DNA of 63,889 nt, filler included, from Xylographa opegraphella (GCA_022813865.1; 4 parts of 4 records of this genome joined end to end with filler, not necessarily neighbours in it), one strand, 5' to 3'. Counted from the whole stretch's first letter, positions 19,203 through 63,889 are shown. Notes: generated from the letters alone by a model not told the origin. Program-made: numbers and translations.

Positions 19203-19204
19203 AA

Positions 19205-37579: not shown

Positions 37580-37679
37580 NNNNNNNNNNNNNNNNNNNNN
37601 NNNNNNNNNNNNNNNNNNNNNNNTTAATTAATTAANNNNNNNNNNNNNNNNNNNNNNNNNNNNNNNNNNNNNNNNNNNN
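37580..37679. other. Artificial contig linker N44-TTAATTAATTAA-N44
   Basis: Same construct as 19309-19408. Confidence 0.95.
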
Positions 37680-37743
37680 TAAAAAATAAAAAATAAAAAA
37701 TAAAAAATAAAAAATAAAAAATAAAAAATAAAAAATAAAAAAA
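37680..37743 (+). repeat. (TAAAAAA)n simple repeat
   Basis: About 9 perfect 7-mers at the contig start. Confidence 0.95.
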
Positions 37744-38080
37744 GGAGTAAAAGCTTCGAGAATTATTCGTACGGGAAATTGTATAAACTTTTATTTTCTT
37801 AAAATACTCGATTAATTTGACGAATTATAAAACGTTAAAATAAAAAATAGTTAGAAAATCATTCAGAATACGCAGCGAAATACGGGGAAAAAGCAAAAAA
37901 ATAATAAATAAAGAAAAATATAGCGGTAGTGAATATTAAAAAAAATATTAAACTAATTAATATTTTAAAGTAAGTAACTGTTAATTGGTAGAAGCATCAC
38001 TTGCTGGTAGGCATAAAGGAATACCTAAAGGCTAGTTCTATTTATGTATAGCGTAGTTCAGTACTAGCGTAGGAGGTATA

Positions 38081-38169
38081 TGTCACGTTCTCGTGGCCTA
38101 TACCGAACTTCACCGAATATACGATTACTGTTGCCCCCGCCCTGATCCAAATACACGTGCCTTTTAATA
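38081..38169 (+). mobile_element. Truncated LTR (family F) preceded by a purine tract
   Basis: AGGAGGTATA|TGTCACGTTC...; the last ~36 bp match 19500-19535. Confidence 0.6.
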
Positions 38170-38199
38170 GTAACTATAAATAATTTAAGCTTAATATTA

Positions 38200-41100: not shown

Positions 41101-42430
41101 AAAATTAGTAACAGATTATCGCCTGCCAGTAGATTATAAACGAAGTATATAAACATATAAAAATTCTATATTAAAAAATAGCCGTTATATATTAATGGAA
41201 AAAATGGTATAAGAACTGCAAAATTTACAAAAATTATTAGCGAAGATTTTTACAATTAAAATCGAATATAATTTTTATTACGTATAATTAATATTGTTCG
41301 AAAATATAATCGTAAACGTAATCAAAATATGTCAAAAAAGAGGTAAATCATATAATAATCGCCCGAAAGATTTATCAAGTTAAATAAAAATTAAAGCTTC
41401 CGAAAACGTAAATTTCAAAACGATTACTCGATTTTTATAAAAAAACGTTATCATTCGCCACGAATTTTTTAGAAAATAATTTTAAATAAAAATTAGAAAA
41501 TAAAAAATATATTAAAATACTATTGAAATTGTATAAAATTAAACGAATATAACTTTTTATATATAATTCAAGCGCGAACGATATAATAAAAAAATTAAAT
41601 TAATCATAAATAAGCTAGCAAAGCTAATATATAAACAACTAAATATATAATTTAAACTGTTATATTCAATTTTATAAGTTAATTAATTTAATATTCGTTG
41701 AATTATCGATATAACCCTATTTTAATTTATTTATAGAAAAATACATATATTATCGATCGAGGCCAAAATGCCTAGTTATAATAATTTACTTCAAAATTAA
41801 ATTCGAAATACAGTCGATCTGCTTGTATTACAAAATTTATAATTATTATAAAAAGATAAAATAAACTTGAAAAAAATAGCTTTAAAGTTTAAAAAAAATA
41901 AGTGACTAAATGAAAAAATACTTCGACGTTAGTAAAATTACTAAAAACAAAATATATAAAATGAAAAATTTAATTTTTCTATACAATATTAGATTTAAAA
42001 ACGATCATTTATTAAATTAAAGATTTCATTTTTAATAGCAAGGCTCTTATCCAATTATCGAAGCGAATTTTATTAAAAAAGTATATTGTCTGTAAAAATT
42101 AAATAATATAAAAAAATTAATATCGTCTCTAAAAGAAAATTGAAATTATATGTTAAATGAAAAAACAAAAAAACAAAAGAATATACGACAATTCTGGCGA
42201 ATTTAAAAAAGTAGTATTTTAATAAAAATACAATCGACGATAAAAATGAATTTTAATATTTTAAAATAATTATTTCGTTAACATAATATAAAAACAGTAA
42301 TTAAAACCTTAAAAATAACTACGATTTAAACAGCTTTGGCGATAATAGCTTTCATTTAAAATAAAACTTAAAGTTCGAACATTTTGCTGAACGAAAAGTA
42401 AGAATCAAGGTTCAACGGGGGCGAAAATAT
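38200..42430 (+). mobile_element. RIP-degraded Gypsy pol (protease, RT, RNase H, integrase), Ylt1-like
   Basis: About 39570-39790 back-mutates to FLVKK...Y.LINA...NKV.I.DAN.......F.EEFAGM..VSL.D...GYDQ (RT). About 41320-41500 resembles AREDLSGW.E......VA.F....VI.RHG (integrase). Ends in GGGGGCGAAAA then TGTACA (PPT/LTR junction). Confidence 0.65.
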
Positions 42431-42499
42431 GTACATATCGAAGTCGAACGAAAGTGGAAAATCAGTGAATAAAACGTCGAAGACCGCGTTATTCTTTAT

Positions 42500-45400
42500 T
42501 TAAAAAAAATATTCCTTTTTTTATCAGGGTTAGCGAAAGTAAAAGAAAAACGTATAAATAATTACGCTAGCGATTGTATTAACGATTTTAAAAAAAATTC
42601 CTTTTATCTTTTTATATTTTACGACTTTAAATTGTACCTTTGAATTTAAATGATTAAAACGGGAACGAGAATCTTTGTACTCGAATAATATTATGTCAAG
42701 AGATTTATTTTTGTTATTGTAGTAATCTTTTTTATATTCATGGCGGCAATATCTTCTATGTTTATAATAGCAACTTTTTCTATATTCGTGGCAGTAACTT
42801 TTATTATATTAGCGACGGCATTAACGTTAACGTATTTAAAATATTAATTTCCTCTCGACTACGACCTTATTTAATTTACAATAATAATAATTTTATTAAT
42901 ACGACGATATCGTTTTTATTATCATAATAATATTCTTTTTTTACGATATCGAAATTTTTACCCTAGTAATAATTAAAACTATATTCGATTTTATAGCTAT
43001 AATATTTTTATTATTACAATAACGATTGCTTATACTTTTTTTTATAATTACTAATTTTTCGCTCTGGAAAGCAGTATTTTTTAAATTTAGTTGTAATATT
43101 ATTATCGTACCAGTTTTTAATAAAAATTAAATTTATCTTACCTCGTTATTTTATTACAACTTATCGCTTTAAAATAGACCTTTTATAGCCGTTTAATAAA
43201 AATATTAAAATATTAAAAAAACAAACGAGACGATCGCAAAAGTAGAATAAACTTTATAAAATATTTATTATTTCGTTTAGGCCTTTACAATAATTTAAAT
43301 AGTGTAAAAACTTGATGTAAATTTAAAAAAAATTTGAAAAGCTTTTCGCGTTTCTTTACTTCAATTAGAATTAATTAAAAAAATTGTATTATATTATTAA
43401 AAATGTAAGAAATCGAATTTTTTTAAAAAAATTACAGTCGGTAAATAGTAATATATGGCAAAGATGCAGGTATTGCTATAATAAATTATATTTCAATAAT
43501 GCTTTAAAAATAATATTTTTTGTTATAATATCTGCAATCATTATGAGTAAATTTATTAAATATATTGCTGTTTAGAAATATAATTGATTCAATACATATA
43601 GAAATAAATTCGAAGATCGAAAGAAAAAGATAAAAAAATAGGTATAATAATCGCAGTTTTTTTTATACTAAATTTTTTTGAACAAACTATCGAGATTTTC
43701 AAGATCGATTTTCCAGAAATAACGATGGTTATATGAATTTAAAAAAGATATTGATAAGAAATAAAGTTAAAATTTATCGATTGAGCAGGAATTCGAAAAA
43801 GAAAAAAGAAATAAATTTTTGAAATATTAATTTTTAAAAATTAATAAAAGGAATTTTCCAAAGAAGTTTTATCAAAGAGTTTATTTTGCTGAGATTTTTA
43901 ATAATATTGTTAAGAATGACGATGAACTGTATAAAGTTTATAAAAGAGTTATTATTAGAATGTTATTTTTTATAATAAAATTATGATAATATTAATGATG
44001 ATAACGAAAATAATCAAAAGAATAATAAAAAGAATAATACAGTAAAAGCCAATTTCGCGGCGAATATTATTAAATTTTATAAATATAAAAAATGCAAATT
44101 GCCCTTCCTTTTTAATAATAAACTTCATTAATATATTCGCCAAAATTAATATATTGAACCGTTTAAAATTGATACAAAAAATTTACTTTTCGTCGAGTTA
44201 AAAGTGCTTAAAATATAAATGTACGATGAAAAACTTTTCGGTCAATAAATTGTGAAATCAATATTTTCGAAAATTTTATTAATGAAAGAGTATCCGTTTA
44301 AAGACTAACGATACGCTACGATTGAAATTAATTTAAACTTTTTCATTAGCGAGAAAGCCAATATTTATTTAAATATGAAATATATTATAAAATTTATTAA
44401 TAAAGACTTTCTTTAATAGCGCTATTTTAATGTAAAATTTAAAATAAAAATTATTTTTATAAAAGTTCGTAGCATTGCCTCGTTTAGCCGTACAGCGAAT
44501 CAATATACCGTTATATTTTTTAAAAACGATAATAGTAGAATAGTTTATTTTAGGCGGGAAATTTATTTAACTAACAAATTAAAAGCGAATATATTTATAA
44601 AAATTCATATTATTACCCCCGAAGGTATTTTAATTAATCTTATATTAAAAATAATTATATTTCAATTTTGCGATTTTATTTAAATAATTACATTTATTAA
44701 AAATCGATTATTAAAGATTTGAAATAATATTCTGCGATAAAAAACGATTATTTCGTTTTATACTCGTTAAGCTATATTTATTAAAGGTGCTAAAAGAAAA
44801 ATGTTGAATTTTTTTAAAAATTGTGATTTTCTTTCGAATCGAATAGGGTTCCATAATAATTATTGATATTTGCTTATATTATTAATTATAATATATTTTT
44901 AGTTTTCGTACAAAACGACTTTGATACAAACGTCATTTTATTTTAAAATATACGTATAAAAAACGTAGTAATATATAAAAACTAGGGATATTTTATAACG
45001 ACGGTCAAAATGTTATTAAATAACGCAAGATTTGCCGTCAAATTATCGAAATCTTCGAAATTAAAATGATCTAAAAAATTATAAAAAAAAGTCACTAGTA
45101 TCAGTACTGCTAGTTAACGTTGTTATTTTAAAAATTAATTTTTTTGATCGTTTAAAAGTATAAACTTGCGAACGAAATCATAATTTATAATGATATATCG
45201 ATTATTGTATTTTGGAAATTTACTGCGGCGAAATATTTTAATTCTTGAATTAATAAAGGAAATACTGCGAACGTATTTAAATTCGGATAAATATATTTTT
45301 AATAAATAATTAAAAAAGTACTATAAATTCAAGCAGGCCACAGTATATTTAATAAAACAACGAAATTATAATATTATTAATAAAGTTTTTAATATATTAT

Positions 45401-46430
45401 ATGCTTAAAAAAGAATAGAAAAAACGAAATTTATTATATTATTTAACTATTTATATTTTGTGGTTTAAAAGAATTAAAGCGTATAAAATAAGGGAAAAAT
45501 AGTTATCGATATTCAAGCCCTGAATAAAATTATTATATTAAATATTTATTTTATCCCCTTTTAAGCGAAAATATTAACAGTTATTAATAACGCTATATAT
45601 ATTATTATTATCGTTGACGTATATTTGTTTTTTATTATTAATTAATAAACAAAATATATCGATATCGTTTAACAGTTTCATATTATAAAGGCAAAAAAAC
45701 CTTGAATATAATCGTAATAGAACATCGAAATTCTTTAATATATATACAAAAAGTAATTAACAAAATTTTGAAACTCTGGCGAAACCTTGCAAAAACTTAG
45801 GTTAATAATATTGTAATTTTTTTATTTTCTTTAAAAAAGTATTTGTAATATTTTAACGAAATCTTTAAATTTTTTGCGTTATTCAATATATACCTTTTAT
45901 TTAATAATTTTATTTGAAATAGCATTTAATAACTCTGCTTGATTAATGTGTTAACGCTTTAGGATTAGCGATCGCAAAGGAAAAATTTATAACGATATTA
46001 TAATCAATATTTCCGCGATTACTAAAACAGTTTAAAGATTATTTAGAATTAATAGATTATTTGCGATAATATGTTTTCTATTACGCAGCAGTCTTTCGGC
46101 TATTATAATTCCGAAAAACAATTCTTAATAAATTTATGCAAAAAGGTATCCCAAAGGCCGTCGGGAAAATTTGTAAAACATTACTTAATAAACTAGAAAT
46201 TATAGTATTAATATTTAAGCAACTGGCTGCGTTTTTTTAAATCTAGAAATCATTTTTAAGGCCGTCGATATTGGCGTATATTATGATCAAGCGACAGCTC
46301 TATATTAATATAAATTTATTATATAAAACTGAACACGACGCTTACGCGTATTATGCTATCGAATCCATGATCGATGACACGAATTCTCCAAAGCATCGGC
46401 TCTGCAGATTATCATTTTTTTATTCACACA
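42500..46430 (+). mobile_element. Second RIP-degraded Gypsy (gag, C2H2 finger, protease region, RT, start of RNase H); degraded DNA continues to about 48900
   Basis: About 45490-45560 reads KGKIVIDIQALNKII.LNIYFIP (KGRVV.DIR.LNK...D.YP.P); about 45798 reads *VNNIVI (YVDDIVI); about 46270-46320 resembles L.HYD.KRQLYI..D; C2H2-like finger at 44084-44140. Confidence 0.65.
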
Positions 46431-48541
46431 ATTATTCGCTTTCAGCAGTCCTTGTGACAACTTTGTATTTTACAATAAATAAAAATTATATACTTTTTGT
46501 TTAATATTATATAAAATACGTGCGTTTTTTAATATATATCGTAAGTTTTTGTAAAATCTCGAATAAAATATTTTAATATAAACCAGTTATAATATTTATT
46601 AATAAAATAAAATATTTTAATTACTTCGAAATATCTCGTTATTAAAATATCGTAATATTGTTTTGAAATATGATTACGCAGTATAAATAAAATAAAAATT
46701 TATTTTTTTCGAAAAATAATAGACCGTTACGAATAATAAAATTAAAATATATTATCGATATTACGGTAACGAAGGAAACGTATTATTTTTTAAAAAATAA
46801 TTGTTTAATTTCGAGCGATAAATTAATTTGAACAACGTTAAATATCGCGATAAAGTATTCTTTGGTATTTTGTATTATCGTTCACACGCGATTTAAATTT
46901 TTTAAAAAATACATATAAAAAGCTTTACGTAAGTAAATTATAGTATAAATTTTTGAATTTAAAATTACTTATTTAATTCATGCGCCGCGATAATACGTTA
47001 ACTAAATTCAATTTTTCAAACATGTATAAAATTATAAAATTAAAATTAGCAAAATATTTTATTTATCGCATTTGACGACGCGGTGAATAATTCGCAATAT
47101 TTTACGATAACTGTTTTATAATCATAAATATATTTTAATCGAAAAATATTTTTTTTAAAACGTATAATAATTCTTTGATTTATTTCTAACGTATTTTACA
47201 AAAGCTAAAATATTTGTTCAATTTAGTTAATAACAGCGTTGTTTTGCTATAATAAAATCATTTACGAATTATTATATTAAAAGTTGGAAATTATATCGAA
47301 TTTTAAGAATTAAATACAAAATAAATGATATTAAAATTATCTAATTATTTTTTTACTTTGTATATAATTTTACGAAATAGATTATTCTTTAGTAATCAAA
47401 ACTTTCGCAATATTGTAAAATAATCTAATATGATTTAACCTATTTTAACAATAATTTAATATAAATAATTAATAATATTTCAATTTATAAATTCACTTTT
47501 CGCTTCAATCGTTAATATAATGCTTTTTTTACTACGGCAAATAATTTTTTAATTATTAAAAATAATTATGTTTTATTTTATTTAGCTAAAAAAGCCTGCG
47601 TACAAACAAGACGATTTTTAAATATTTAGTCCTATAAAAATATAATAATAATATTTAAATTTAAGATTAATAACTATCGAATCGCTCAGATTGCCTCGTT
47701 TAATTAATTATTAATTCAATTTTTACGCAAGAGTAAACAAGATAAAAAATTCAAACAAAAGTTAATATAATTAAATTACTACAATTTTTTGCAAAAAATT
47801 AATAAATATTAGAAAGTATTATTTTTTGACGTAAATTATCGATATTATCGCGCGTTAAGAAAATTAAACGTTAAAATACTATAAAACTAAATTATTAAAT
47901 TTTTTTCTCGAGGCCTATATTATTAATTATAATATAATTTTTAAATTTGCGTTTCCGATTAAAAGTTTGTTATATATAATATATTTATTATATATTAAAA
48001 AACCTTAGTATGTACGGCGGGAAATTAAAATTCTAAAAAGAATTTTATCGATAAAATATTAAACTTAGAAATTATATTAAATGTGATCTATATATCGTAA
48101 CCAATTTATTTTAAAACTAGAACGTTAATTTAGTATATAAATTCTTATAAACATTAGCGATATTTCATCGGCGTTGCGTAATTGAAAAATGTATAATTTT
48201 TAGATTCGTTTATTAATCTTTTGGAATTTATTTTTTATAAATTATTTAAATCGGCATCGTAGTTTTTATTCTTAACGATATTGTAATTTTTATTTTAATT
48301 ACTGTATGAGACCTCGATAAAGTTTATAATAATCGTTAATCAACTATAAATTACTTAGTCGTTAAATAAATAATTAATTATCGATTGTCGTTAACTAATT
48401 TCGAATTAATCAGCGATTTAAAGTTTTATATATAGTCGAGAGTTTATTAATATAAAATTAGTTACTGATTAATATGTAATTAATTGTCGATTTTTAATTT
48501 TTAATTATCGGTTGAAAGTTCTGCACGCACGCGAGTTATAA

Positions 48542-48661
48542 ATTATCAACGTTAATATTATCAACGTCAATATTATTAACGTCAATATCATTAACGTTAA
48601 TATTATTGGCGTTAATATTATCAGCGTTAATATTATCAGCGTTAATATTACTAGCGTTAAT
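48542..48661 (+). repeat. 15-bp tandem repeat, 8 copies (consensus ATTATCARCGTTAAT)
   Basis: Units differ only by C/T and G/A transitions. Confidence 0.9.
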
Positions 48662-48935
48662 TAATTCTTAACAGGACGTTTAATTCGTTAAAGTATAAAA
48701 TTTAATATGAAATATTTACGTTAAACAAATCAATTAAAAAAATTATACTTTAAATTTTTTTAAAATTTTTTATTTATAAAATAAAATTTAATATACTTAA
48801 CTATCAATAATTATAATGAATAAGTTTAAAATGTTTAAATAACTTTCGTAAGTTATATCGTACATTTTAGTATAATAATCGAGTTATTTTTAGATCTCGT
48901 TATAATAATAACGCTTTTATTATAAATTTAGCGAT

Positions 48936-49149
48936 TGTCACGAGCAATGTGAACTTTTGTGTGAATAAAGAAAATGATGAATATTTATGGAAACGGGCCC
49001 CATTTTATAGGGCCCTTTTACGCTAATTTTGCAGAAGCAGGCGAGGTAAAAGCTCTGCAGAATAAGGCCCCCAGTAAGGAAGCCATGCACAGGGTGGGCC
49101 TTAAAGAGGAAGTCACGTGGCTGAAAATCACGTCTTGCGAGCTGTATCA
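48936..49149. mobile_element. Solo LTR, family E (214 bp), TSD GCGAT
   Basis: TGTCACG...TGTATCA, a GC-preserved island flanked on both sides by GCGAT. Orientation not determined. Confidence 0.85.
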
Positions 49150-49513
49150 GCGATAATAAATAACGATTTTTTTTAAATTAAATTTTGTGATTTAATATAA
49201 TTATCGTTTTTACGGCGATAAAAATTTAAATTAAATTTATCTTTAACGTTATTTCGTTTATCAAAGGTTTCGTTTGGGCGAATAATAAAAATAATTATTC
49301 TAAAAATTATATCGAAGTTTTTGTATAAATTTACGAAGTTTTTATACAGTATATAATTCAGTATATAATTTTTATTTGTTTTATTTTATTCGCTGCGATT
49401 TAATTAATCGATAAATAAACTCGTTATATTATAAATTAAATTAATCGATTGAATCCAATGAGCGAAGTAGCTAAATTAATCGTTAAATCGAATAAATTAA
49501 ATAAGTTAATGAA

Positions 49514-49762
49514 TCAATAAATTCAATAAATTCAATAAATTCAATAAATTCAATAAATTCAATAAATTCAATAAATTCAATAAATTCAATAAATTCAATA
49601 AATTCAATAAATTCAATAAATTCAATAAATTCAATAAATTCAATAAATTCAATAAATTCAATAAATTCAATAAATTCAATAAATTCAATAAATTCAATAA
49701 ATTCAATAAATTCAATAAATTCAATAAATTCAATAAATTCAATAAATTCAATAAATTCAATA
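49514..49762 (+). repeat. Perfect 9-bp tandem array (TCAATAAAT)n, about 27 copies
   Basis: Read directly; produces the spurious NLL-repeat ORF. Confidence 0.97.
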
Positions 49763-49817
49763 TTTTATATGATTAATTTCTAGGGTAAATTTTCGCTGTA
49801 AAAGAAACTATATATAT

Positions 49818-49955
49818 TAATATATATAACTTACTCAATATATATATATTATTTCATATATATAACTTAATTAATATATATTTTATTTAATATATATAAC
49901 TTAATTAATATATATTTTATTTAATATATATAACTTTATTAATATATATTTTATT
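49818..49955 (+). repeat. About 34-bp AT-rich tandem repeat, about 4 copies
   Basis: Unit TAATATATATAACTTAATTAATATATATTTTATT at 49888, with a one-base variant at 49922 and weaker copies upstream. Confidence 0.8.
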
Positions 49956-49999
49956 TTTAACTATTGTAAAATTCAAACTATATATAAATTAAGTTTTAC

Positions 50000-52900
50000 T
50001 TACATTTTAATAATAAAATCGGATAATTTAAATATTTATTATTATTTTTTAATTTTATAATCATCTCGCGTAGTATTTGTACGAAATAAAGATCGATATT
50101 CTTTAATACTAAAAATTCAAAAATTATCGATCAAATCTTGATTTTATTAGACCTGGAAATTAAGTATCGAATTTAGGATAAATTCGCTAACAAAATTCTT
50201 TTATTTGCGAAGTATTTATATTATAGAAAATACGTAAGATTTTCTACAATAAATATACGTAAATATTTATTAAAATTCTATTTTCATATTTTTTATGATA
50301 CAGTTTTCGTTACAATAGATTTAACGTTTATTATTTTTTATTAATATACACAATTCGATCGTATTATTTAGATATTTTATTATCGAAATCAATAATAATT
50401 TTTAAATTATAATTAATTATATAAATTCAATGAATATTGGTAAAAGAAATATTAAAGAAAATCAATTTTTTATAATTAATAAAATCAATCAATTATAATT
50501 AATAAAAATTACCTTTTATTATTCAAAAACCTCGTATTAATGAAAAACGATAATATAATTTAAATTTTTTCAAAATTATAATATTTAAATATCGTTTTTA
50601 TTGTTATTTTCGTCATTACGATTGCGTTTCTTTGTAAATAAATATTTATCAATTAAATTGAGATATTAAATTTTTAGAAATTATAAATTTTTTGAAATAT
50701 TAATTCTAGGCCCCAGTGAGTTTTGAACGCAAGAACTAACGAAAAACGTTTTTTATTAAAAAATTAGCCTATTAAATTTAATAAAACTACGTTATCGGCT
50801 ATCTTTTAAATATTTTATATTTTAACTCCTTAAATAAAATATTAATATTTATTATCGTCAAATACTTATAAGCAAAATCTATTGAATACAAACCTGCGTA
50901 TATATTAAAAAGATTTATTATTTTATTTTATTTTAATATATATTTACAGCTTATTCGTAATACATTAAAAACTTCGATTTTAACGTTAAAACCTTTTATA
51001 ATAATATTTTTTATGATAATATTTTTCGTATTAAAGACCGCTATATTGAACATCGTTATATTAAAACCCGTTATATCGAGAGTAGTTGTAAAAAACCCTT
51101 TATATTTATAATTCAGTACTTAATATATTAATAATATTTGGCATTTCGGCATTTAAACCAGAAATAACAATAATAAATTTAATATTATTAATAGAATTAA
51201 AAGCGTTTTTTGCGCATTAATATAAGTTTTAATAATAATATTTTTTATAAATAATCATTAAATAAATCATTTTATAGAAAATAAAAATATTACTGCCTAC
51301 GATAGTATTACATTTTATAATTCTACAAAATGCCCAGATAATAATTTTAATAGTAAATTAAAATCGATTGTTATATTTAATACGTAATTTAATAGTATAA
51401 AAATATAAAAATCGATATTAAATTATTTTTTTCTAAACTTTATAATATTAAAAAAATTAAAATTTGTAGCTCGATCTGTTTTAAACATGGATTAATTTTG
51501 AAATATTATAATAAATTTGAAATTCTAGATCAGCGACTAGGAAGAAAAAGATTTAAAAAATATATAAATATTTTTTTATTTTAATCTTTAAAAAAATATA
51601 AAAAATATAATTACGTGTTCAATACAGAACGCTGGCCTGTACGTACGCTTTGATAATACTTGGTAATTGCTTGGCAGTTTAGCCTTTTTATATGATAATT
51701 TTAGGGCCTTTATAATAAAGTGTTTTTATGCTTTTAATACAATTAAATTTATTGTAATAATATAATAGTATTATTTTACTATTAATTTTAAAGTATTGAA
51801 ATTGTCCGCGAAATCGCTAGATTTTTAGCTACCAGATTTTAAGCTATTAAATTTAATCTTTCGATTACAGCTTATTTACGTAATAATTTAATAGTAGCTT
51901 TATAATTTAATATTTTAATTAAATTCGTTAAATATTCTTTTGTAATAAATATCGATAGCAAAAGCTATTAATTAACATAAATCTTTTTAATCTGTTAAAA
52001 GAATTTATAAAACGCAGTACGAGGCTACATTAACGGCCTTGCTATCTAATATATTTTTTTAACTTTATAATTTATAAAGCACTTTTTTCAAAAGAATTAA
52101 TATGTTTTTTAGAAAAAAACCTTTTTTTAAAAATTAATTAAAATCCGATTTAAACTTAATTAAGTTTTTTTATATTTTATGTACGTTTACGATATTTAGA
52201 GATTGAATTAAATTTCGCATTTAATTACGTTATACTGATTATATAGAAAGTAATATAAGAGCTTTTAAGATCAATTTATCAATCGGAAATATTTTTAAAT
52301 ACAAATTCCGTATATATTAATCTATTTTTTAAGAAAATTTAAGCCAGAATCTACGATACAGTAAAACTATACTTTTAAGTAGTATAAATTCTTATCAATA
52401 TTTAAAATCGCTCGATAAAATAAAAATAATAAATTAAATGTAATCTCGACTGGGTTTACAATGAAAAAAGTTTCTTTAAATAATGAAACGATTTAATTAA
52501 TAGCTATTAAGTTTAACCCTATTATTTAATCTCGAAATTTTAAAACGATTTAGTATTTTTAAACGGTTTAATATTTTAAACGACTATTCGAATCGCTATT
52601 TAAATATGTTATATAAGAAAACGGTAATTGATAGCTAAGTTATTAAAATATTTCAATATTTAACTTTTTTAAAAAGTAAAAACTTAGCGAAAATCTTGAA
52701 ATATATTATAAACTTTAATAATATTCGGAGAATTAATTTTTTTTAACAAATTCTTAATTTTAAATATTTGATGGGCTTATTAAAAGCGATATTATCGCCG
52801 TAGTTTAAAAATATAACTATATAATAATCGTCGACTATTCGTTATTTCTCTATTAATAATTAATCGCTAGTAAATATAAAAATCGTTTGATTATAATAAT

Positions 52901-54760
52901 ACATCATAGCTAAAAATTATTTAATATAACAATAATAAAATATCGTAATTCGTTAATATATATAAAGGTAAATAAATATAGTATTTCGAAAATTTCGAAA
53001 ATTTCATCGCATATACATAAACAACGTAGTAGTATTTTTAAATTATTATTAAAGTATATTAATTATTTATCATATATTTTTGATAAATTTAAAACTATAA
53101 ATATTTCTGTTAAAATTATAAAAATCTTTCTGAGCTTTTTAAATATTAAATTATTAAAGTAAATCATAAATTCGCTTAAATTAATAATAATTGAGAAAAA
53201 TTCCTTATTATAAGCAAGTTAAACTTTTCTCGAATATTCAAGCAGCTCGAAATATATTTTAAATTTATAAAATATATATATAATTATATTTCAATATACG
53301 CCGACATGTTTTATTTATTATAGTTAAAAACGATTATATTTCTAAAAGCTTCGCCGATCGCTAATAATGGCAGAAAGAAATTTTTAGCTCGGTTATTTAT
53401 TTATCAATCGATATTTAAAAGATTAATTAATATCGTTTAGAATTATGTAAAAATTATTGTTAAATTTAGTAATATTAATATATTTTAATTAATTTCGAAT
53501 ATTTCGATCGATTTCGACGAGTTAAAAATAACAATAAACGCTATAATTTATTACGTTAAGCCCGGTACCGACCTATTTAAATATCTTTTAAATTAGTAAT
53601 TTAATTAAACTTTTTAATCGATTTATAATCGACGTTGAAATTCGGTACTAACCAATTAAATTAAAAATAGCAGGTTTGATTTGAATATCTGAAAACGTTG
53701 AATACATAATTGAGAACTATAAATAATCGATTATTATTGTTATAAATTATAAAGCAATCGTTAAATCGTTAAACAAATTAATCTTACAATATCGTTAGTA
53801 AAGGAATTAAATTTAGAACTAATTCAAGCCAGCGAATATGTTTAACGATTCTTGTTTGATATTTAATATAAATTAAAAAAGCTCAATATCGTTCTAAATA
53901 TTTTCGCAAAAAATTTAAAAAATAATTATTTATAAATAATGTCGAGGGAGGGCTTAACGCGTTATAATTATATTACGAAAATACTAAAACGTCGTATTTA
54001 TTTTTATTAAAATACGCGTTTATTTGCTCGCTCGTTAGAATATCGAAAGAATCTAAAAATTATACTGTTAATAAATATTTGTAAGACTCGGTATATATAA
54101 AAATACTAAAATTAGTTATGAAAAACGATAATTTATATTAAAATAATAAAACCAAATTGCTTTTTATGCGCTACAAAAGAATTTAATTTATAAATTTGAC
54201 GTTTTTATAAAATCGTATAAATATGAAAAACAAAAACTTTGTTTATTTATATTAATTTTACATAATCTTTTTCAGAGCGTATACGGGAATATAGATACTT
54301 TAAATATATACGTTTTTATAAAAGTTTAAACGCGATTTAATATATTCGGAATTTGAATAAAAATAATTCTTTTTTATTATACTACTTGTAGTATTAAATG
54401 ATTTAAATTAGAAAATATAAATCGTATAAAAATCTATAATTAATTAAATCGATATTAATATTATTTTATATCATAGTTAATAATTTTTGTTTTTGCTTTT
54501 TCGATGTTCCGCGAAAGATTTGATATACTTTTTTTAATAACGTATAAACTTTTTGTACGAGTAATTTTAATAATTAAAGTTTTCATATTCTCGGTTTTAT
54601 AATAGGCAAAAGTATTATTTAAAAAATTAAAAGTAAATAAATTGATTTTACTAACAAACTTTTTATTACATTAAAACTACAACTTTTTAAGTGATTTTTA
54701 AAAAGTCGTATTTAATTAGTTAAGCGTAAAATTAATATATTTTACAGTCTATTATTTTTC
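50000..54760 (-). mobile_element. RIP-degraded repeat block, possibly a LINE ORF2 on the minus strand
   Basis: Weak motifs only: about 51620-51690 IIKAYVQASVLY (cf. .Y.ACV....LYG), about 53560 RSVPG (cf. K.APGPDG), YVN near 51975. Motif spacing is irregular. Confidence 0.35.
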
Positions 54761-54774
54761 AATAAAAAAATAAA

Positions 54775-54841
54775 TAAAATAAATAAAATAAAATAAAATA
54801 AAATAAAATAAAATAAAATAAAATAAAATAAAATAAAATAA
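54775..54841 (+). repeat. (TAAAA)n simple repeat at contig end
   Basis: Read directly. Confidence 0.95.
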
Positions 54842-54941
54842 NNNNNNNNNNNNNNNNNNNNNNNNNNNNNNNNNNNNNNNNNNNNTTAATTAATTAANNN
54901 NNNNNNNNNNNNNNNNNNNNNNNNNNNNNNNNNNNNNNNNN
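54842..54941. other. Artificial contig linker N44-TTAATTAATTAA-N44
   Basis: Same construct as 19309-19408. Confidence 0.95.
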
Positions 54942-55424
54942 CCCCTACTGCGAAGACCTTAGGGGGGACAATCAGGGCTCGCTAGCGCTCACCCAGAACC
55001 CATATTTTCATAAACGCTCCAAACACATCGACGTAATATATTACCATATTCGAGACCTGGCAAAGCAAAACTAAATCAAGATAACGTACGTATTTATATA
55101 GAATGTGGTCGCGAACCGGCTAATTAAGGTATTAAATCCTATTAAAAATAAGCAGTTTACAAGGCTTCTGAGTATGTTAAACAGTAGAAATACTACAGTA
55201 GTTAAGGGATGTCACAATACAGGCTGAGTAAAAATATTGAAAATCCAGGGGGTTAGCAGCCTGTGTTGTCGGCTTATACTATAGCCAATTAGAACTAGTT
55301 TAGCACAGGACTCAAAGAGTCTTCTGAAGCCTTAGCTTCAGGAGAATTCTTTACCTTCTTAATGATTAAGCAATGCACTGCTATCTGCTGCCAAAACCCC
55401 TGTGCCTAATGATTAAATTCAATA
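54942..55424 (+). mobile_element. 3' end of a Ty1/Copia element: RNase H relic, PPT and 3' LTR (55235-55424)
   Basis: GDNQGSLALTQNPYFHKRSKHIDVIYYHIRDL is the Copia RNase H signature; VANRLIK resembles ADGLTK; LTR termini TATTGAA...TTCAATA are mutated TGTTGAA...TTCAACA. Confidence 0.88.
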
Positions 55425-55573
55425 AAAGCTTTTATTTTTATTTAAAGATCGAAGGGCCATTAAAAGCAAATAAATATTTACGTTAAAATTAATTTTTAAA
55501 AAAATTTAAATATACAACTCGCAAAATCGTTAAAGGTTTTTAATAATAATACGAAATCGATTACGATAAAACT

Positions 55574-55822
55574 TGTTACGGCTCGCTATCTCACCAGAAA
55601 AGCAGGCCTAGAACCACAGCTATAGGTGAGCGATTTCAACCTAGAATAATACAAGGAAGCAAGTTTANNNNNNNNNNNNNNNNNNNNNNNNNNNNNNNNN
55701 NNNNNNNNNNNNNNNNNNNNNNNNNNNNNNNNNNNNNNNNNNNNNNNNNNNNNNNNNNCCGGACGCGCTTTAGTCCCGTTCCGTCTATCACTTGTTAAGG
55801 TGCCATGTAACACGCCGTTACA
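55574..55822 (-). mobile_element. Family-A LTR with TSD AAACT (contains an N gap)
   Basis: Reverse complement of 2841-3070, with AAACT on both sides. Confidence 0.9.
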
Positions 55823-56784
55823 AAACTTTCGTTTTAATAATTATATTTATTTTTATAAATTTTTATTTATTTTTATAATGTTGCGATTTAAATTTTTTTA
55901 TTTTAATAGTTTTTATATAAAAAACGTACGAAACGATCGCGTCGCATATTTTATTTAAATAAAAAAATATAATTATTTTAAAATAAATTTTGTAGCTATT
56001 CGAGAGTAAAAAAATAAAATACGAAACTGTTTTTATAAAAGTATTAAAAATAAAATAATAAATTTTTTATTAAAAATATATATTTACTATTCGATAACAA
56101 AATGCTACTCGATAACGAAACGGTAATTAATAATAATTTCATTAATAATAGGCCCCGATGTTTATATACAATAAAAATATGAATATAAAAATCTATAAAC
56201 TTAAATGCCCAAGGGGCGCCCCCGAAAAAGGCCCCCGGGGCGAATATAATTACCCGGGAATTAAAAAGTTTAGAAAATAAACGAAGGCTTTTGTTACGAT
56301 TCTGCTTTTTATTAATATAATTCGATTCAGGATCTGGGTTGAATTCGTTAATAAATAAATAAAAAGACACAGTAATAAATCAATCGTTTTTTAAAGGTAA
56401 TAATTTTCGTATAGTAATTGTATTGAAGCTTATTATTTTAAAATTATAATATAAATTGAATACGTTTTTTATAATAAAAGAAATTCTTTACTTTATATAA
56501 AAGTTTTATTTTAAAATTATAATATAAATTGAATACGTTTTTTACAATAAAAGAAATTTTTTACTTTATATTAAAGTTTTATTTTAAAATGCCTTCCATG
56601 CCTCTCGAGGGAGACTATTAAAATAAAAAAAATTATGCCTTTTATGCCTCCTTAAAGAGGCAAAGAAAGCAATCAAATTAAAGTTCCCTCGACCCTTGTT
56701 TTATATAATATTGGTCAGAATTTTATTATTAGCTTTCTCCGCCAGATTCTTGCTCCGAAAGAATTTCAGCAATTTCTTTATATT

Positions 56785-57200
56785 ATATTAAAATATAAAT
56801 TTACCAGCGCTTACCGTCGAGAGATTTAATCGCATAACATTCGTAATAGCAGAAAATTCACGATGTATTCTTGCGATCGTTATATTACAAAGTATTTAAT
56901 TTATAAAAATTTTTCGAAATCGAAGTTCTGCGTAAATTGTATTGCGGTTAAAACTCGTTGTTTTTGAATTATTATAAAAACTGACCGTCGCGATTTAAGA
57001 AAACAAAAGAGTAAAATAAAACGTCGAATAATTAAATTAAAACAAATTTTAAATTAAGCTTAACAAGCCCTTGATCGTAAAAAACGTCGATTTTTAAATA
57101 TTAAAAACGAGGAACGGGAAATATTTTAGCGTAAAATATTTAATATCAAAATCCTGGAAAATAATAAACATTAAAAAACGAAAGCCTTTATTAACGATTT
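56785..57200 (+). pseudogene. Antisense accessory ORF of the Gypsy element: Zn2Cys6-like cluster plus coiled coil, RIP-inactivated
   Basis: 56872-56961 reads CDRYITKYLIYKNFSKSKFCVNCIAVKTRC. Reverting two TAT codons to TGT gives C-x2-C-x6-C-x8-C-x2-C-x6-C. A K/R/E/Q/L helical segment follows in the same frame. Confidence 0.7.
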
Positions 57201-57207
57201 TTTAAAG

Positions 57208-57407
57208 CTTTTTCTTTTTCTTTTTCTTTTTCTTTTTCTTTTTCTTTTTCTTTTTCTTTTTCTTTTTCTTTTTCTTNNNNNNNNNNNNNNNNNNNNNNNN
57301 NNNNNNNNNNNNNNNNNNNNNNNNNNNNNNNNNNNNNTTCTTTTTCTTTTTCTTTTTCTTTTTCTTTTTCTTTTTCTTTTTCTTTTTCTTTTTCTTTTTC
57401 TTTTTTT
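57208..57407 (+). repeat. (CTTTTT)n simple repeat spanning an N gap (57277-57337)
   Basis: Read directly; lies between the pol end and the antisense ORF. Confidence 0.9.
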
Positions 57408-60400
57408 CCTTTTAGGGCTTTGAAAGTTTCTTTTTCTAAAATTTTAACTTTATTTAATATTATTATTGAAGAAACTCCTGGTAATTTTTAAGGCTAGTAA
57501 GTGGTTTTTAAATATTATTTAACTCTGGGTATTTTTTTATTTGATTAAATAGTTCTGACTTTGCTTATTCAGGTTTTTTTTACTTCGAATTTTATTTTAC
57601 TTTTTTATTGTATCAAAAAGTTATTTGTAATAAAGTATTGACGTTCACTGATTTTAACAAAAAAATATAAAACACTAGGTATACTCTTGCATTTTTTGGC
57701 AAGTTAAAAAAGTAGCTAATTAATTCTTTAATTCATTTGATTTAAAATAATTCGATTTTAATATAATCGAGTTTTTTGCTTTAATCTTTGCTGATTATTA
57801 AATTTTTTGTAGAAAAGTAATCTTTATCCCCTTTTTTTTAGCTGAGGTTTATTCTTTTTATTTTTATATTTTGTAGCAGCAATTTTATCGTTATTTTATT
57901 AAATTTTTTTAATAACGCTTCGTGCGTATTTTTTAAATCCTTGATTAATATTATTACTTTATTAATATTAAATTCTAACCTTTTTTTTAAAAATAATTTC
58001 GAATGTCGTTTTGTATTTGCGAAAAAGGGCGATATTCCCGTTGTTGTAAATTGCTTATTATTTAGCGCCAATTATTTTAAAAACAATAATAATATTTAAT
58101 TATTCTGTTTGAAGTTAATAAAGTATCGTAAATACACTTTTAAACTTTGGTTTATTTTTTTCGTTTAACCATTTATTTGTGGGTAATAAGCGGTTAATAT
58201 TTTTAACTTAACTTTTAATTCGAATATTAAGGTTTTTTAAAAGTTTAACATAAATAGCTTATTTTTTATTAAATATTATTCCTGCTATAAACCCATAATC
58301 TTTTATTAATTTGTTTAATAAAAGAAAAGCTAGCTATTCTGTTATAAATGTTTTTCTAAAAGGTACGATAATAAAATATTTAATAAGTTTATTTATAAAT
58401 ATTATTATTAAATTATATTTTCATTCTGTAGTTGGATTTTCTGATTTTTGTAGTTTTATAATAAAGTTAATTGAGATTTATTCCTATGGTTTTTCTGGAA
58501 TATTCCAAAATTAAATGTTTTTATATACTGCATGTTTTGTTGATTTATTTTTTTAATATAATATGTATTTCTTGATATATTCCTTTATATACTTTTTTAT
58601 ATTTTAGAATTTATAGTTTTTTCTTATAGATCTTATTATTTTAATAATTCCTGAATGGCTATTCGTTAGTTTATTATAATAATATTTAATTATTTCTTCT
58701 GCTGACAATTCTGTTAAACCTTTTGCAATCGCTTTTATTTCGAAAGTTACGATTTATTTTGTAAAAATAAAAGCTCGATCGTTATTCTTTCGTAGTAATA
58801 TTTTGTTTATTGATTCTTTGTTTATAAGGTTTTTTTTCTGTTAAATACATTTACTCTTTCATCATTTTTTTAATATATATATAATTTTAAATTTGTACTG
58901 TTCGAAAAGTTTTATCAATTTTATTTGTTTTTTATTAAGTACTTTTGTTGTAATAAAATTTAATAAATTTTTATAATTTATATAAATAGTAAACTTTAAG
59001 CAACTTTTTGTATATATTTTTTAATTTTAAATAAATATTATTTTAGCGAGTAGTTCCTTGTCGTGAATATTATAGTTTTGTTCTACTTATAATATTTTTC
59101 TTAAATAATATGTAATCAAGTACTATTTCCCATTTTATATTTATAATAAATATATATTTATAGCTAAGTTTAATGCGTTTGTTTTTATTTTCGCAGATTT
59201 TTTTACCTAAAACATTATCAAGATTGGTGGTTTTATAATATTTTTTTAAAAATTAAAAGCTCGTTGTTGATTCGAATCCCATTTAAAATATATATTTATA
59301 TGTGTTCAATTCGTTAAAGGTATCGCCTTTTTCAAATAATTTTTAAATAAAATTTTTATTAAAGTTTGTAAATTCTAGAAATCTCAAGATCTTTTTTGTT
59401 ATTATTAATTAAGGTTATTCGAGTATAGCTCGTATTTTTTCTGAATTTATTTTATTTTCATTTTTATTAATTATGAATTTTAAAAAAGTTACTTCGTTTT
59501 TGCTAAATTTACATTTTTGGATTTAAAAAGCAATGCTGCTTTTTCTAAATATGTAAGTACTTTCTGCATATATTTTATATATTCCTTTGCTAATTTCGAG
59601 TAAATAAATATATCGTTTAAAAAAATTATTATCGTTAAATTTAAATATATTATTAATACGTTGCTGATTAACGCCTGACAAATAATTAATGTATCAATTA
59701 ATTTAAAAAATATAATTTAATATTCGTATTATTTATATTTATTTCGAAATGGAGTTTTTTATTCCTCGCCTTTTTTTATTTTAATTAGATTATATACGAT
59801 TTTAAGGTCAAGCTTGGTAAAAGTTTTTACTTTATTAAATTTATTTCGTATTTCGCTGATCTTTGGTAAAGGATATTAATTTTTAATAATAATATCGTTT
59901 AACTTTCCATAATTAATATAAGATTTTAAGCTTTCGTCTTTTTTTAATTTATATTACGGAATATTTTGCTAAGAATTTTAATTTACGTATAAATTCTTTT
60001 TTTAAACTTTTATCAATATATCTACGAAGCTTTTGAAGTTTTGATTCTAATATATTATATATAAATTTAACTATTGACTTCTTCCCTGATTCGAGATTGA
60101 TTTTATTGTTTTAAGGTTGATGCTTAAATAAAGCATTAAACTTTTTCTTTTTCTAAAAAAATCATGTTTATGTTTTATATTCTTTAGGGATATCAAAAAG
60201 TGCGTTATTTTTTTTTAAATTTTAATTTAATTCGCCTTGTTGAATTTTTGCTAATGCTTATCGAGCCGAATCCTCGAGTAAAATCGTTTTTATTTAAAAA
60301 TAAAAATTTTATAATCTCGATCGGTTTTCGATTTTTTTATTATCGTTCTTTATTAATATATAAAATATATGTTAACAACGCGGTTAATATACATTTTAGT

Positions 60401-61298
60401 AAATATTCTTTTTATTTTAGTTTAAAAATACGTTGTGCTTGATTTATTAAAATAAATTTAAAATAATATAACATCTGGTTATAATAATTATATTAAAAAC
60501 TATTTTTTATAATATTAATAAATAGTAACAAAAAGTGAATTTCTATATCTTTCGTTTTTCTTTCTTAATAATCCGTCGACTATTATTATTTAAATTTATT
60601 TTAAAGTTAAAAACTCGAAATCGCAGCTCTACGCGAAAGTACTAAATATATAATTTATATTAGCTTTAATATTTAATAATGCGATTATTCGATAATCGTT
60701 TATTTTAATCGAAATTTTTATAAAATTTATATAATTTAAAAACTTTTAATGTATTTTAGGGTATATTATATTAACTTTTATATATTTTTTTATAATATAT
60801 ATATATAAAATTTCTGTTCGAGATAGCCGTAAATTTCTTTAATTTTTATATATATTATATATTTTTTATGAAAATATTATTGCTATAATAAATTTTCGTA
60901 ATCGCTTTTTTTCGAACGAATTTCGTATATAATAAAATTGTGGCCAAATTCTTGTATATATTCTGGAAAGTACAAATATTTTCGTTTTTCTCGAAGCTGC
61001 CAAGGGTATTTATTCTTAAAGTATTTATCCTAGATTTAAATTCTACAATAGGCCTTTTTTATATAGTCATTATAATCATGATTTTTTAAATAAATTTTAC
61101 AGTACGTGCTTATACAAATACTACTGTATATTAAACTATAGTATAAATATTTTAAATTTATTTAATAATTTTATGTATTTTTTTTTTTAGTTTTTATCGG
61201 CGTTATTGACTCGTTAATTTTTTTATAAATTCAATTTTCGAAATTGTTTAACTCGATATTTTATTCCTTGAAATTCTTCTCAATTTACAAGCTATTAA

Positions 61299-61529
61299 TG
61301 TAACGGCGTGTTACATGGCACCTTAATAAGTGATAGACGGAACGGGACTAAAGCGCGTCCGGGACTCAGGCTAGTTCGAAAGCGGTTACGAGTCTTGGCG
61401 TTAGCACTGTTTATTTTAACTTCTACGTGTATTACTAAACTTGCTTCCTTATATTATTCTAGGTTGAAATCGCTCACCTATAGCTGTGGTTCTAGGCCTG
61501 CTTTTCTGGTGAGAAAGCGAGCTGTAACA
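61299..61529 (+). mobile_element. Solo LTR, family A, TSD ATTAA, nested in the Gypsy gag region
   Basis: TGTAACGGC...GCTGTAACA with ATTAA on both sides; no gap. Confidence 0.95.
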
Positions 61530-62391
61530 ATTAATGTTTAAGTCGCTTTTTTATTGTAATTGATTTTTACTCAAGGGCTATTCTTCTTGTATTAAATATT
61601 GGTTTTTTTTATTTTTTCGTAATTTTTGTTAATATTAACTTAATCGTTTAAAATTAAAATAAGTTCCGTATTCTTTTCCTTGTATGAAAATAGCTGATTA
61701 TTTTTAAATATCGATTTCATCGAATATTTTAGGTATATATTTATTTATGATTTAAATATTTTGTTCCTTGACTAATAGTTTTTAGCAATGTGATCAATTT
61801 TTTTATATATATAATAAATATTTTCTATTTTCTTACCCCGTAAGTGCTGTTTTTTAAATTCTTGCTTTTGCTTTTGAAATATTGATCCATAAGGGTTTGG
61901 CGTTTTATATAATTTTTCTTTTACTTTAAAGCCGTTTTTTAGTAATTAATTCTTATCGTGCCTTCAATTTCGTGTCTGCGTTTTATAGTTTTTTCATACA
62001 GTTTATCATTAATTTTTATATATATCTCGATCATTTTATCTATAATTTTAATTACGATGTTAATTTCTATTAATTTATTTTTTACCGAATCTTTCAATCC
62101 CCTGCGGTATATTACTATTAATGTATTGTCGTTCTATTTAATTTAAATCGTAAATTGTTAAAATCGAGTCGAGTATTTTGTATAAAATTCTTTTTGTTTG
62201 AAATGCTATATAATTCGTATTGCTATATTTTTTTCGTTCGATGGTTCGAAAATTCTTCTGATTTTCGTTTTGAATATCGCAAAGTTTTTTAACTATTTGG
62301 AGTTTTCGTCGTCAAAATCCTTGAATTGTTTTTTTAAATAAAAGGCGATTTATTTCTGAGCTTGTCCTCGCATGTATATAATGACGAAAAG

Positions 62392-62574
62392 TGTGACGGC
62401 TATGACATCAGTCACAGGTAATAGGGGTCGGGCTGGATCAGGACTAGCACCTTTAGTATATAGTCTCGCCCATGGAGCAGCCTCACCGCTTCTTCATCTT
62501 AATCTGGGTTGAAATCGTCCACCTAAAGCTTACGTTCTAGGCGTGCTTGCGTGGTGAGTTGATGAGCCGTAACA
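62392..62574 (+). mobile_element. Solo LTR, family B (183 bp), TSD AAAAG, nested in the Gypsy gag
   Basis: TGTGACGGC...GCCGTAACA with AAAAG on both sides; no gap. Confidence 0.95.
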
Positions 62575-63889
62575 AAAAGTAATCTTTTTAGTTTTAGGAC
62601 ACTGTTTCCCTAAAATTCGAAGAATATATTTATTTGTATAAGTCAGTTTTTTAGATAATTTTTATTTTCTTTATATTTATCGGGTTTTTTTACCTTGACG
62701 TGATTATTTTTTATAATATTTTTTTATTACTTTCTGCAACGCTTGGGGTTGGGTTTAATCGTACTCCTGATACACTTATTTTAAAGGTATTTAAAGTATT
62801 ACGATTTTACTTTTTATTAATATAATTTGATTAGGGATCTGGGTTGAACTCGTTAATAAATAAATAAACAAATATAGTAACAAGCTAATTATTTTTTAAA
62901 AGTAATAATTTTCGTACAGTAATTTTATTAAAGTTTACTATCCTAAGATTATAATATAAGTTGAACACGTCTTTTACAATAAAGGAAATTCTTTACTTTA
63001 TATAAAAGTCCTGTTTTAAAATGCCTCCCATGTCTCTCGAGGGAGGTCACTGAGGCAAAGAGGTGATGCCTCCTATCCCTCCTCAGGGAGGCAGAGGAGG
63101 AAATCGGAATAAAGGTTCCCCCGACCCTTGTTTCACACAACATTGGTCAGAACCTTATCAGCTCTGCGGGCCTTCTTTATTTATTTTTTTTATTTTTTTC
63201 GAACTTTTTAAATATAGTTAATATAGAATATATTCAGGGCTTCGCTCTGAATATCTCCTTATCTTTATTAGAATTAATTTTATACCTTTCAATTTCAATA
63301 AACGATAGTAAAATTAAGTAGTTTTATTTAAAAGGCGATTTTCGCGAAAATAAAATAGGTATATAATATAATAATTAAATTGATTATTATATACGAGACG
63401 ACGGTATAACACAAACGAAACGATATTTAAGAATTAATAAAAGTAAAAAAACGATTTAAAGTTTTATAAAATCAGGGACTACAAAATATAATAAAAAATT
63501 TCAAAAAATTAATATAAAAATACTATAAATAAAGGAATTAATATCTTCGATTAAATTATATTTTAATAAAATTTAAAATTATGCAATTTTACGTATACGA
63601 AATATAAATAAAACGCAGAAAATAAATAAAATTTATTATAAAGTTAAAGCAAAAATAGAAATTCGATCAAAATATATAATTTTAAGCAAAAAATAATAAT
63701 AAATTTTAGAAAAAATAATTAATAAAGATATTATACTGTTAAACGTGAAAAATATATATATAACGTTATTAAAAAAACTATAATAATCGTTTATTAAAAG
63801 CGAATGAAATAAAAAATAAAAAATAAAATATGTTGAAAGGTACGATGGGTACTGAAGCGCAGTGGTCATTCTAGCAGAATATATGGGTA

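Follow-up and report, generated by a model that had tools for sequence, protein, structure and literature searches.

A 63,889-nucleotide stretch of DNA from Xylographa opegraphella (GCA_022813865.1; four parts of four records joined end to end, filler included; hereafter the window) contains, towards its right end, a Ty3/Gypsy retrotransposon and, on the opposite strand within it, the remains of a further gene. We conclude that positions 56785–57491 on the plus strand are very likely the relic of an antisense accessory gene of this chromodomain-type element, which occupies 56292–63160 on the minus strand, and that the gene was inactivated by repeat-induced point mutation (RIP). The gene is conserved at the protein level, it fills the entire space from the polypurine tract (PPT) to pol in the orientation opposite to that of the element, and it is dead in this copy, in which ATG has changed to ATA, two cysteine codons have become tyrosine codons, six stops interrupt the frame and a microsatellite has expanded. 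Its start at 56785 lies ~55 nt inside the element from the 3' long terminal repeat (LTR), directly past the PPT, and the product of an intact copy would have ~170–180 amino acids, as in the homologue P0003 described below. An initial annotation, made from the sequence alone, had proposed an antisense accessory gene with six cysteines and a long helix at this place, and both the homologues and a predicted helix support that proposal.

The main part of the relic, translated from 56785 to 57210 in frame 1, reads ...FTMYSCDRYITKYLIYKNFSKSKFCVNCIAVKTRCF, a stop, and then a stretch rich in K, R and E. Between 56872 and 56961 the same frame (56785+3k) reads C-x2-Y-x6-Y-x8-C-x2-C-x6-C, so that four cysteines of a six-cysteine pattern are kept and positions 2 and 3 of the cluster, with codon starts at 56881 and 56902, are both TAT; the translation agrees here with the initial annotation, whose two coordinates are these codon starts. 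When the Zn2Cys6 spacing was relaxed to accept Cys or Tyr at each position, the antisense frame was the sole stop-free match in the six frames of the window. The AT-rich DNA (31.4 kb) was simulated 300 times with an order-2 Markov model: 5% of the simulations contained a relaxed match of any kind, and none contained a match with at least four cysteines. Simulated sequence totalling 6 Mb held 15 relaxed matches, each with fewer than three cysteines. Stop density was also tried as a sign of coding and was rejected as uninformative: six or fewer stops occur in 7.6% of 140-codon AT-rich windows, and one minus-strand frame over 56778–57198 likewise has only six. No further copy of the antisense open reading frame (ORF) was found within the window. 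A Pfam search of the window peptides returned only a sub-threshold match to ZapC_N and none to Zn_clus, and a comparison of the window peptide with solved structures gave one sub-threshold, unrelated match and no zinc-cluster protein.

Homologues were sought with the antisense frame read through, with X at its six stops (query P0001), by phmmer against 1,835,955,588 representative proteins. Exactly two proteins matched at E ≤ 1e-3, P0002 (166 aa, E = 3.2e-8) and P0003 (177 aa, E = 6.6e-8), and each match spanned nearly the entire query. Both are single-member clusters from ENA assemblies, on contigs of 361,890 and 8,706 bases. P0003 is an intact protein of ordinary composition with a Met and a stop; P0002 is rich in K, I, N, F and Y and resembles a RIP-mutated copy. 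The window, P0002 and P0003 align without gaps from before Cys1 to beyond the linker that follows the cluster, at 26–38% identity (alignments A2 and A3). In P0003 the cluster is complete (C30-x2-C33-x6-C40-x8-C49-x2-C52-x6-C59); in P0002, positions 2 and 3 are Cys and the other four (1, 4, 5 and 6) are Tyr. Each of the six positions is therefore Cys in at least two of the three sequences, and every alternative residue is Tyr, the TGY-to-TAY change expected from RIP at TpG. P0003 has Cys at both positions that are TAT in the window, in line with the proposal that these were once Cys codons, and its Met1 aligns with the ATA at 56785, which had been put forward as a mutated ATG start.

The remaining differences between the relic and its homologues carry the same signature. 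Three of the six in-frame stops align with Q, R and Q of P0003, from which RIP transitions reach a stop codon. Changes of C>T or G>A alone link 77 of 140 aligned P0003 residues (37 of them identical) to the window codons, compared with 26.7 ± 4.4 in shuffles (maximum 41 in 2000); for P0002 the corresponding numbers are 67 of 124 and 21.8 ± 3.9. Together with the phmmer E-values, this bears out the claim of a conserved frame. In the reverse direction, tblastn of P0002 and P0003 against the window gave E-values of 1e-17 and 8e-13, respectively, and matched this locus only. Word-indexed protein searches with P0001, P0003 and alignment A3 added no members; these covered near lengths only and longer fused forms were not looked for. 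An alignment-driven scan of JGI metagenome contigs yielded 591 pattern stretches and viral contigs yielded 108, none of which was confirmed. Three further candidates from the JGI metagenome contigs (L001–L003), picked up with a degenerate DNA pattern for the Cys4-to-linker motif, were rejected as unrelated AT-rich chance matches.

The host element is complete, with a pair of LTRs, TG..CA ends, a 5-bp target-site duplication (TSD) and gag-pol domains, and it is heavily mutated by RIP (coordinates of all features are given in Table 1). Within the window, gene-rich DNA at 45–54% GC alternates with blocks at ~19–24% GC, and the antisense relic lies in a large AT-rich block at the right end. The RIP indices over 56785–57204 were 1.0 for TpA/ApT and 0.6 for (CpA+TpG)/(ApC+GpT), whereas the genic part of the window gave 0.73 and 1.25, respectively; we take the indices of the AT-rich block to be positive by the usual thresholds. 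The LTRs are in direct orientation and differ from each other at 68 places, 61 of which are transitions. On the plus strand the 3' LTR reads TG...TA, its CA end having mutated to TA. A 73-bp tandem duplication in the 3' LTR (56419–56613) was absent from the 5' LTR by repeat search and pairwise alignment. Pfam searches of minus-strand read-throughs, with stops replaced by X, detected in this order Retrotrans_gag (E = 1.9e-4), RT_RNaseH (E = 2.5e-10), RT_RNaseH_2 (E = 6.3e-10) and Integrase_H2C2 (E = 6.2e-7); RVT_1, the polymerase domain of reverse transcriptase, had no match at E ≤ 0.01 on the same read-throughs. Past the integrase the minus strand reads ...KKYPELNNIxKPLTSLKNYQEFLQ..., and we take its NNIxKP and LKNYQEFL motifs to be compatible with a chromodomain consensus after RIP and regard this stretch as the RIP-mutated end of a chromodomain; the Pfam Chromo model gave no match on this mutated C-terminal part of pol. 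The LTRs, the TSD, the domain order and the purine run thus place the gene where it had been said to lie, inside a minus-strand Gypsy element between a chromodomain-like pol end and a PPT-like tract. Rfam and tRNA scans of 55–63.9 kb and of the window gave no matches.

Of the sequencing runs listed, one public DNA run and no RNA run contained the stretch, and sister copies were examined in this DNA run, with contigs compared at 80% likeness; it may be the window's own sample. Two further runs, X2 and X3, yielded almost no matching sequence. Besides the window's own contig, at least two other contigs of the run cover the segment at <90% identity, and their differences are mostly transitions (~70% of the changed places, summed from the change table). 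One of them, record 7 (3,074 nt), covers 56662–56798 and 56894–57126, with 38 differing letters in the second piece, and two contigs have common differences across 56802–56851 and 56939–57108. Both sister contigs have A at 56939 and 56960, by which Cys5 and Cys6 become TAT. The presence of the segment in other contigs of the same genome, as the initial annotation had expected of sister copies, indicates that it is part of the element family and not a private insertion.

The initial annotation ended the frame near 57200. This end needs correction: the antisense ORF extends past ~57200, through a microsatellite and an assembly gap of Ns, to a stop at 57489–57491. The (CTTTTT)n microsatellite and the gap prevent the reading frame from being followed, and P0002 and P0003 have short S/F-rich stretches where the window has the microsatellite. 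The C-terminal piece of the window gives a gapless alignment with the final 17 residues of P0003 (...ILGLLYGTDEAAPGSS) and ends at the same residue; the C-terminus of P0002 is ...EIPGNF. Because of this gapless alignment we regard the gap flanks as colinear with the homologues, which speaks against the misjoin at the gap that had been considered. At >140 nt, the microsatellite is an expansion inside the antisense ORF, at a place that for the opposite strand lies immediately downstream of the end of pol. The last antisense codons lie opposite the pol residues K-N-Y-Q-E-F-L (57489–57469), and the C-termini of P0002 and P0003, when back-translated, allow the opposite strand to encode K-N-[CY]-Q-E-[LF]-L in the phase of the window's pol. 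The same opposite-strand encoding was possible in 5 of 20,000 random 17-mers and in none of 293 other windows of P0002 and P0003.

Table 1. Features of the Ty3/Gypsy element and of its antisense gene relic, in window coordinates.
Feature	Position	Strand	Remarks
Target-site duplication, GCTTT	56287–56291		Partner GCTCT at 63161–63165; one C/T transition apart; TSD = GCTYT
3' LTR	56292–56729	−	Repeat families D1 and D2; alignment A1 with 62797–63160
Polypurine-tract-like run, GGCGGAGAAAGC on the minus strand	56730–56741	−	Abuts the 3' LTR edge; putative PPT
Antisense ORF relic, main part	56785–57204	+	140 codons, 6 in-frame stops
Six-cysteine cluster, spacing 2-6-8-2-6	56872–56961	+	Cys1 56872, Cys4 56929, Cys5 56938, Cys6 56959
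Linker I-I-[TI]-x-x-D-R and charged segment	56968–57204	+	Alignment A2; matches P0003 predicted helix 68–141; F-N-I-x-[AI]-L motif
(CTTTTT)n microsatellite with 60-N assembly gap (57278–57337)	57208–57413		In the S/F-rich part of the ORF
Antisense ORF, C-terminal part, ...ILTLFNIIIEETPGNF	57402–57491	+	Stop 57489–57491; overlaps the pol end on the opposite strand
gag-pol internal region, heavily mutated	57414–62796	−	GC-rich insertions at 61295–61561 and 62360–62575
Chromodomain-like C-terminal pol end, ...NNIxKPLTSLKNYQEFL...	57421–57654	−	K-N-Y-Q-E-F-L at 57489–57469; recognised by motif
5' LTR	62797–63160	−	Plus strand TA...CA; repeat search and alignment

The architecture of the protein is best seen in P0003, in which a basic N-terminus is followed by the six-cysteine cluster, a conserved L-I-I-T-D-x-D-R linker, a long helix and an S/F-rich tail. 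AlphaFold2, run on the three-sequence alignment, predicted one long helix at residues 68–141 with a predicted local distance difference test (pLDDT) value of 85–96. This predicted helix of ~75 residues is basic first (KARKAFIRKKLKDQRRR...) and then acidic. A homodimer prediction with two copies of residues 25–145 scored 0.29, compared with a mark of 0.32. The nearest language-model neighbours of whole P0003 in the ESM Atlas were clusters of Ascomycota hypothetical proteins, at 0.95.

Whether the cluster is of the GAL4 type, as the initial annotation held, has a divided answer. The spacing 2-6-8-2-6 of P0003 fits C-x2-C-x6-C-x5-12-C-x2-C-x6-8-C, and a long predicted helix follows. In a GAL4-type cluster, the stretch from Cys2 to Cys3 holds several basic residues, and a Pro stands a little ahead of Cys4. 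In P0003 the residues between Cys2 and Cys3 are I-E-K-G-L-V, with one basic residue, and Cys4 is preceded by S-D-Y, with no Pro. Against Pfam PF00172 (Zn_clus), P0003 scored 11.5 bits (E = 0.33) with a cutoff of 21, and the match covered profile positions 16–34 only. The layout of cluster, linker and long helix is thus like that of a zinc-cluster factor, yet membership in PF00172 is not assigned, because only the cysteine spacing and the following long predicted helix match.

These departures from the GAL4 pattern count against our interpretation, and several other observations do so as well. The N-terminus and the Cys domain of P0003 were predicted at pLDDT <50, and a family profile found nothing among solved structures beyond a designed coiled coil and a capsid protein, both at E ~1. 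The nearest language-model neighbours of the Cys domain were unnamed Ascomycota proteins at ~0.8, and among named clusters residues 22–70 likewise had neighbours at ~0.8, with no Zn_clus family among them. Only three members of the family were found, and the source organisms of P0002 and P0003 may not be independent of this genome. Among the 40 of 259 sister-copy differences that were listed, 56882 and 56903, where a sister copy could have retained the two missing cysteines, do not appear. Finally, the opposite-strand encoding described above suggests that P0002 and P0003 may also run antisense over a chromodomain end, a suggestion that draws on their C-termini only and cannot be counted separately from their homology to the window.

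The alternative that survives best, which we consider improbable, is that a fragment of a host gene, such as the N-terminal exon of a zinc-cluster factor, was captured once by transduction and has been carried without a role for the element. Fungal zinc-cluster factors are numerous, and an N-terminal cluster followed by a coiled coil is their usual layout. Gene capture is also named among the possible origins of additional ORFs in a review that treats such ORFs (PMC7264820). A passenger of this kind is hard to reconcile with a family that has no Pfam-level similarity to host Zn_clus domains, that has kept 26–38% identity over three sequences with six cysteines and several motifs conserved, that is present in several copies in this genome and whose end is interlocked with the coding sequence of the chromodomain. 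The lack of Pfam-level similarity, the conservation, the copies and the interlocked end argue for long-term maintenance as part of the element.

We give still less credence to the possibility that the real coding lies on the sense strand of the element, as an extension of pol or a sense ORF3, and that P0002 and P0003 are wrong-strand gene calls. The final ~20 codons of the antisense frame do overlap genuine pol coding sequence, the minus-strand frame over 56778–57198 has as few stops as the antisense frame, and opposite frames of real genes may look protein-like. P0003, on the other hand, is an intact 177-aa frame with a Met, a stop and six regularly spaced cysteines, and a 74-residue helix is predicted in it at high confidence. 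Its ESM recognition value was 2840, whereas a value of 2300 was reached by 9 of 100 shuffled or reversed proteins, a comparison that is itself subject to the protein-like look of opposite frames. The last recognisable pol motif ends at ~57469, and downstream of it the minus-strand frames show nothing recognisable. That the cysteine pattern arose by chance in AT-rich non-coding DNA mutated by RIP has a negligible probability. In its favour, Tyr codons are common in such DNA, charged helix-like translations easily arise from A-rich sequence, the stop count is unremarkable and very many windows were scanned for the initial annotation. Against it stand the simulations and, more decisively, the two homologues, whose E-values over the whole library are close to 1e-8 and which carry Cys where it had been predicted; the homologues and the RIP-reachability counts refute it.

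Several other repeats were observed in the window. Short GC-rich repeats that have escaped RIP lie at 61295–61561, 62360–62575, 55542–55822 (inverted), 18860–19043, 19202–19306, 2984–3070 and 37519–37579. They have a common core of ~90 nt ending in ...GAGCCGTAACA, without an Rfam or tRNA match; two copies are inside the Gypsy element and the others are at the borders of AT-rich blocks and beside N gaps. They may be the ends of a different LTR family, or a miniature element of insufficient length for RIP to act on. Two further pieces belong to the same or a related Gypsy family, namely a solo LTR (or a fragment of an LTR) at 16854–17099 on the minus strand and a pol fragment at 1827–3070. An open, less mutated piece of 43 aa at 54943–55074 on the plus strand (...NQGSLALTQNPYFHKRSKHIDVIYYHIRD...), also beside an N gap, had no Pfam match; it resembles the C-terminal end of a Ty1/Copia pol. 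The 19-kb block at 37000–56000, at ~19–24% GC, contains further degenerate Gypsy-like fragments, and 39574–42373, 43490–45456 and 49402–51612 align weakly to the pol of the present element. By tblastn of P0002 and P0003, the antisense ORF was absent from the degenerate fragments in this block.

Returning to an accessory gene of the element, its expression and product can be outlined tentatively. With only ~55 nt of room upstream of the start, transcription would begin in the reverse reading of the 3' LTR, or further out, and the gene would be driven by an antisense promoter located in the 3' LTR or at it. The six cysteines are reasonably likely to hold zinc and would then bind two zinc ions in the manner of a binuclear cluster. 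Behind this in confidence, the predicted helix may pair with itself, and the basic helix probably binds nucleic acid. The likeliest role of the protein is that of a small nuclear factor regulating the expression or the chromatin state of the element itself, a reading that we hold tentatively and with the chances somewhat against it; an autoregulator, an anti-silencing factor and a targeting tether, the roles put forward in the initial annotation, are likewise proposals. A nucleic-acid-binding regulator of this kind would act on the transcription or chromatin of the element family itself, the step in which we place the least confidence. Alternatively, the antisense transcript itself would matter, through double-stranded RNA formed together with the element's genomic RNA, a role of antisense transcripts that is discussed for plant elements (PMC7264820).

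The copy in the window is a fossil, and the useful object is the intact P0003. The family offers a readable architecture, with six cysteines in binuclear-type spacing, a basic-then-acidic helix, an overlap with the chromodomain and an intact natural member, which opens to direct test whether the protein binds zinc and nucleic acid, in what oligomeric state it occurs and whether the gene is transcribed in antisense. The work also illustrates that a RIP-erased gene can be recovered by a stop-masked read-through search; such genes are nearly absent from protein databases (here 2 in 1.84 billion proteins).

How far the gene is new can be judged against known systems. The arrangement is less unprecedented than the initial annotation implied, since an antisense gene in the same slot has been reported. 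In Boty-like Gypsy elements of Botrytis cinerea and Sclerotinia sclerotiorum, the gene brtn lies antisense between pol and the 3' LTR, according to a passage of PMC7264820 that cites Zhao et al. (2011, Virology 417:248). In B. cinerea, brtn is described as belonging to BcGypsy1 and as missing from the current B05.10 annotation (PMC8365987), and a Boty-like element with a chromodomain and brtn is mentioned in PMC4227169. A Monilinia transcript is listed as matching both a truncated chromodomain Pol and BRTN (PMC5987419), which suggests that Pol and BRTN are adjacent or overlapping, as here. Boty, like the present element with its presumed chromodomain, is a fungal chromodomain Gypsy element with an extra gene on the opposite strand between pol and the 3' LTR, as far as these passages describe it. 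The comparison concerns layout only, and the passages on brtn in PMC7264820, PMC8365987, PMC4227169 and PMC5987419 do not mention a cysteine cluster or a coiled coil. No protein named BRTN appeared in the phmmer or word-indexed protein searches, and the word 'brtn' is absent from the supplements of PMC8365987.

The closest class by position is that of the plant antisense ORFs termed aORF-3R, described in PMC7264820 for Ty3/Gypsy elements such as maize Grande (gene23), rice RIRE2, Silene Retand and Phaseolus PvRetro13. As these do, the present gene runs opposite to the element in the interval from pol to the 3' LTR, and it is conserved at the protein level by its homologues, its RIP-reachability and its sister contigs. 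In the sections of that source that treat them, the plant aORF-3R share slot and orientation with the present gene, are kept in most copies of a family, have some nuclear products and are discussed together with antisense promoters (PMC7264820). They differ in belonging to plant lineages and having long internal regions, and their products are described there as having no clear similarity to database proteins; the Grande promoter is internal, whereas the start of the present gene is ~55 nt from the LTR (PMC7264820). The same source describes the products of antisense additional ORFs as having no recognisable features and their function as open (PMC7264820). In the literature searched, we found no LTR retrotransposon described as carrying a zinc-cluster or zinc-cluster-like ORF, and the words 'antisense', 'binuclear' and Zn_clus do not occur in Muszewska et al. 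(2011; PMC3248453).

By architecture, P0003 resembles the PF00172 factors in having the cluster near the N-terminus, followed by a linker and a long predicted helix, and differs from them in being only ~177 aa long with no further domain. HBZ of human T-cell leukaemia virus type 1 (HTLV-1) is a basic leucine zipper (bZIP) factor. Like the gene described here, it yields a small nuclear-factor-like protein with a basic region and a helix, antisense at the 3' end of a retroelement beside the 3' LTR; it differs in coming from a human retrovirus and in being a bZIP protein without a cysteine cluster, and with no homology between the two the analogy is one of layout only. Its antisense promoter lies in the 3' LTR, as stated in PMC7264820.

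The kind of feature is therefore known, though rare, while the architecture of the protein and the overlap with the chromodomain appear new unless brtn is the same family. That the gene family is the brtn family is quite possible, though we lean against it; the gain would then be smaller but real, namely a domain-level description of brtn and a wider distribution. A more far-reaching reading, which we rate as rather unlikely, is that a lineage of fungal chromodomain Gypsy elements encodes a zinc-cluster, coiled-coil DNA-binding factor of its own, unrelated to brtn, whose gene is expressed in antisense out of the 3' LTR and interlocks with the coding sequence of the chromodomain; in the manner of HBZ, the factor would tune the LTR promoter or counter host silencing. 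If true, no earlier relative of the fungal Zn2Cys6 transcription factors would have been borne by a transposon, and the antisense accessory ORFs of LTR retrotransposons would gain their first functional clue.

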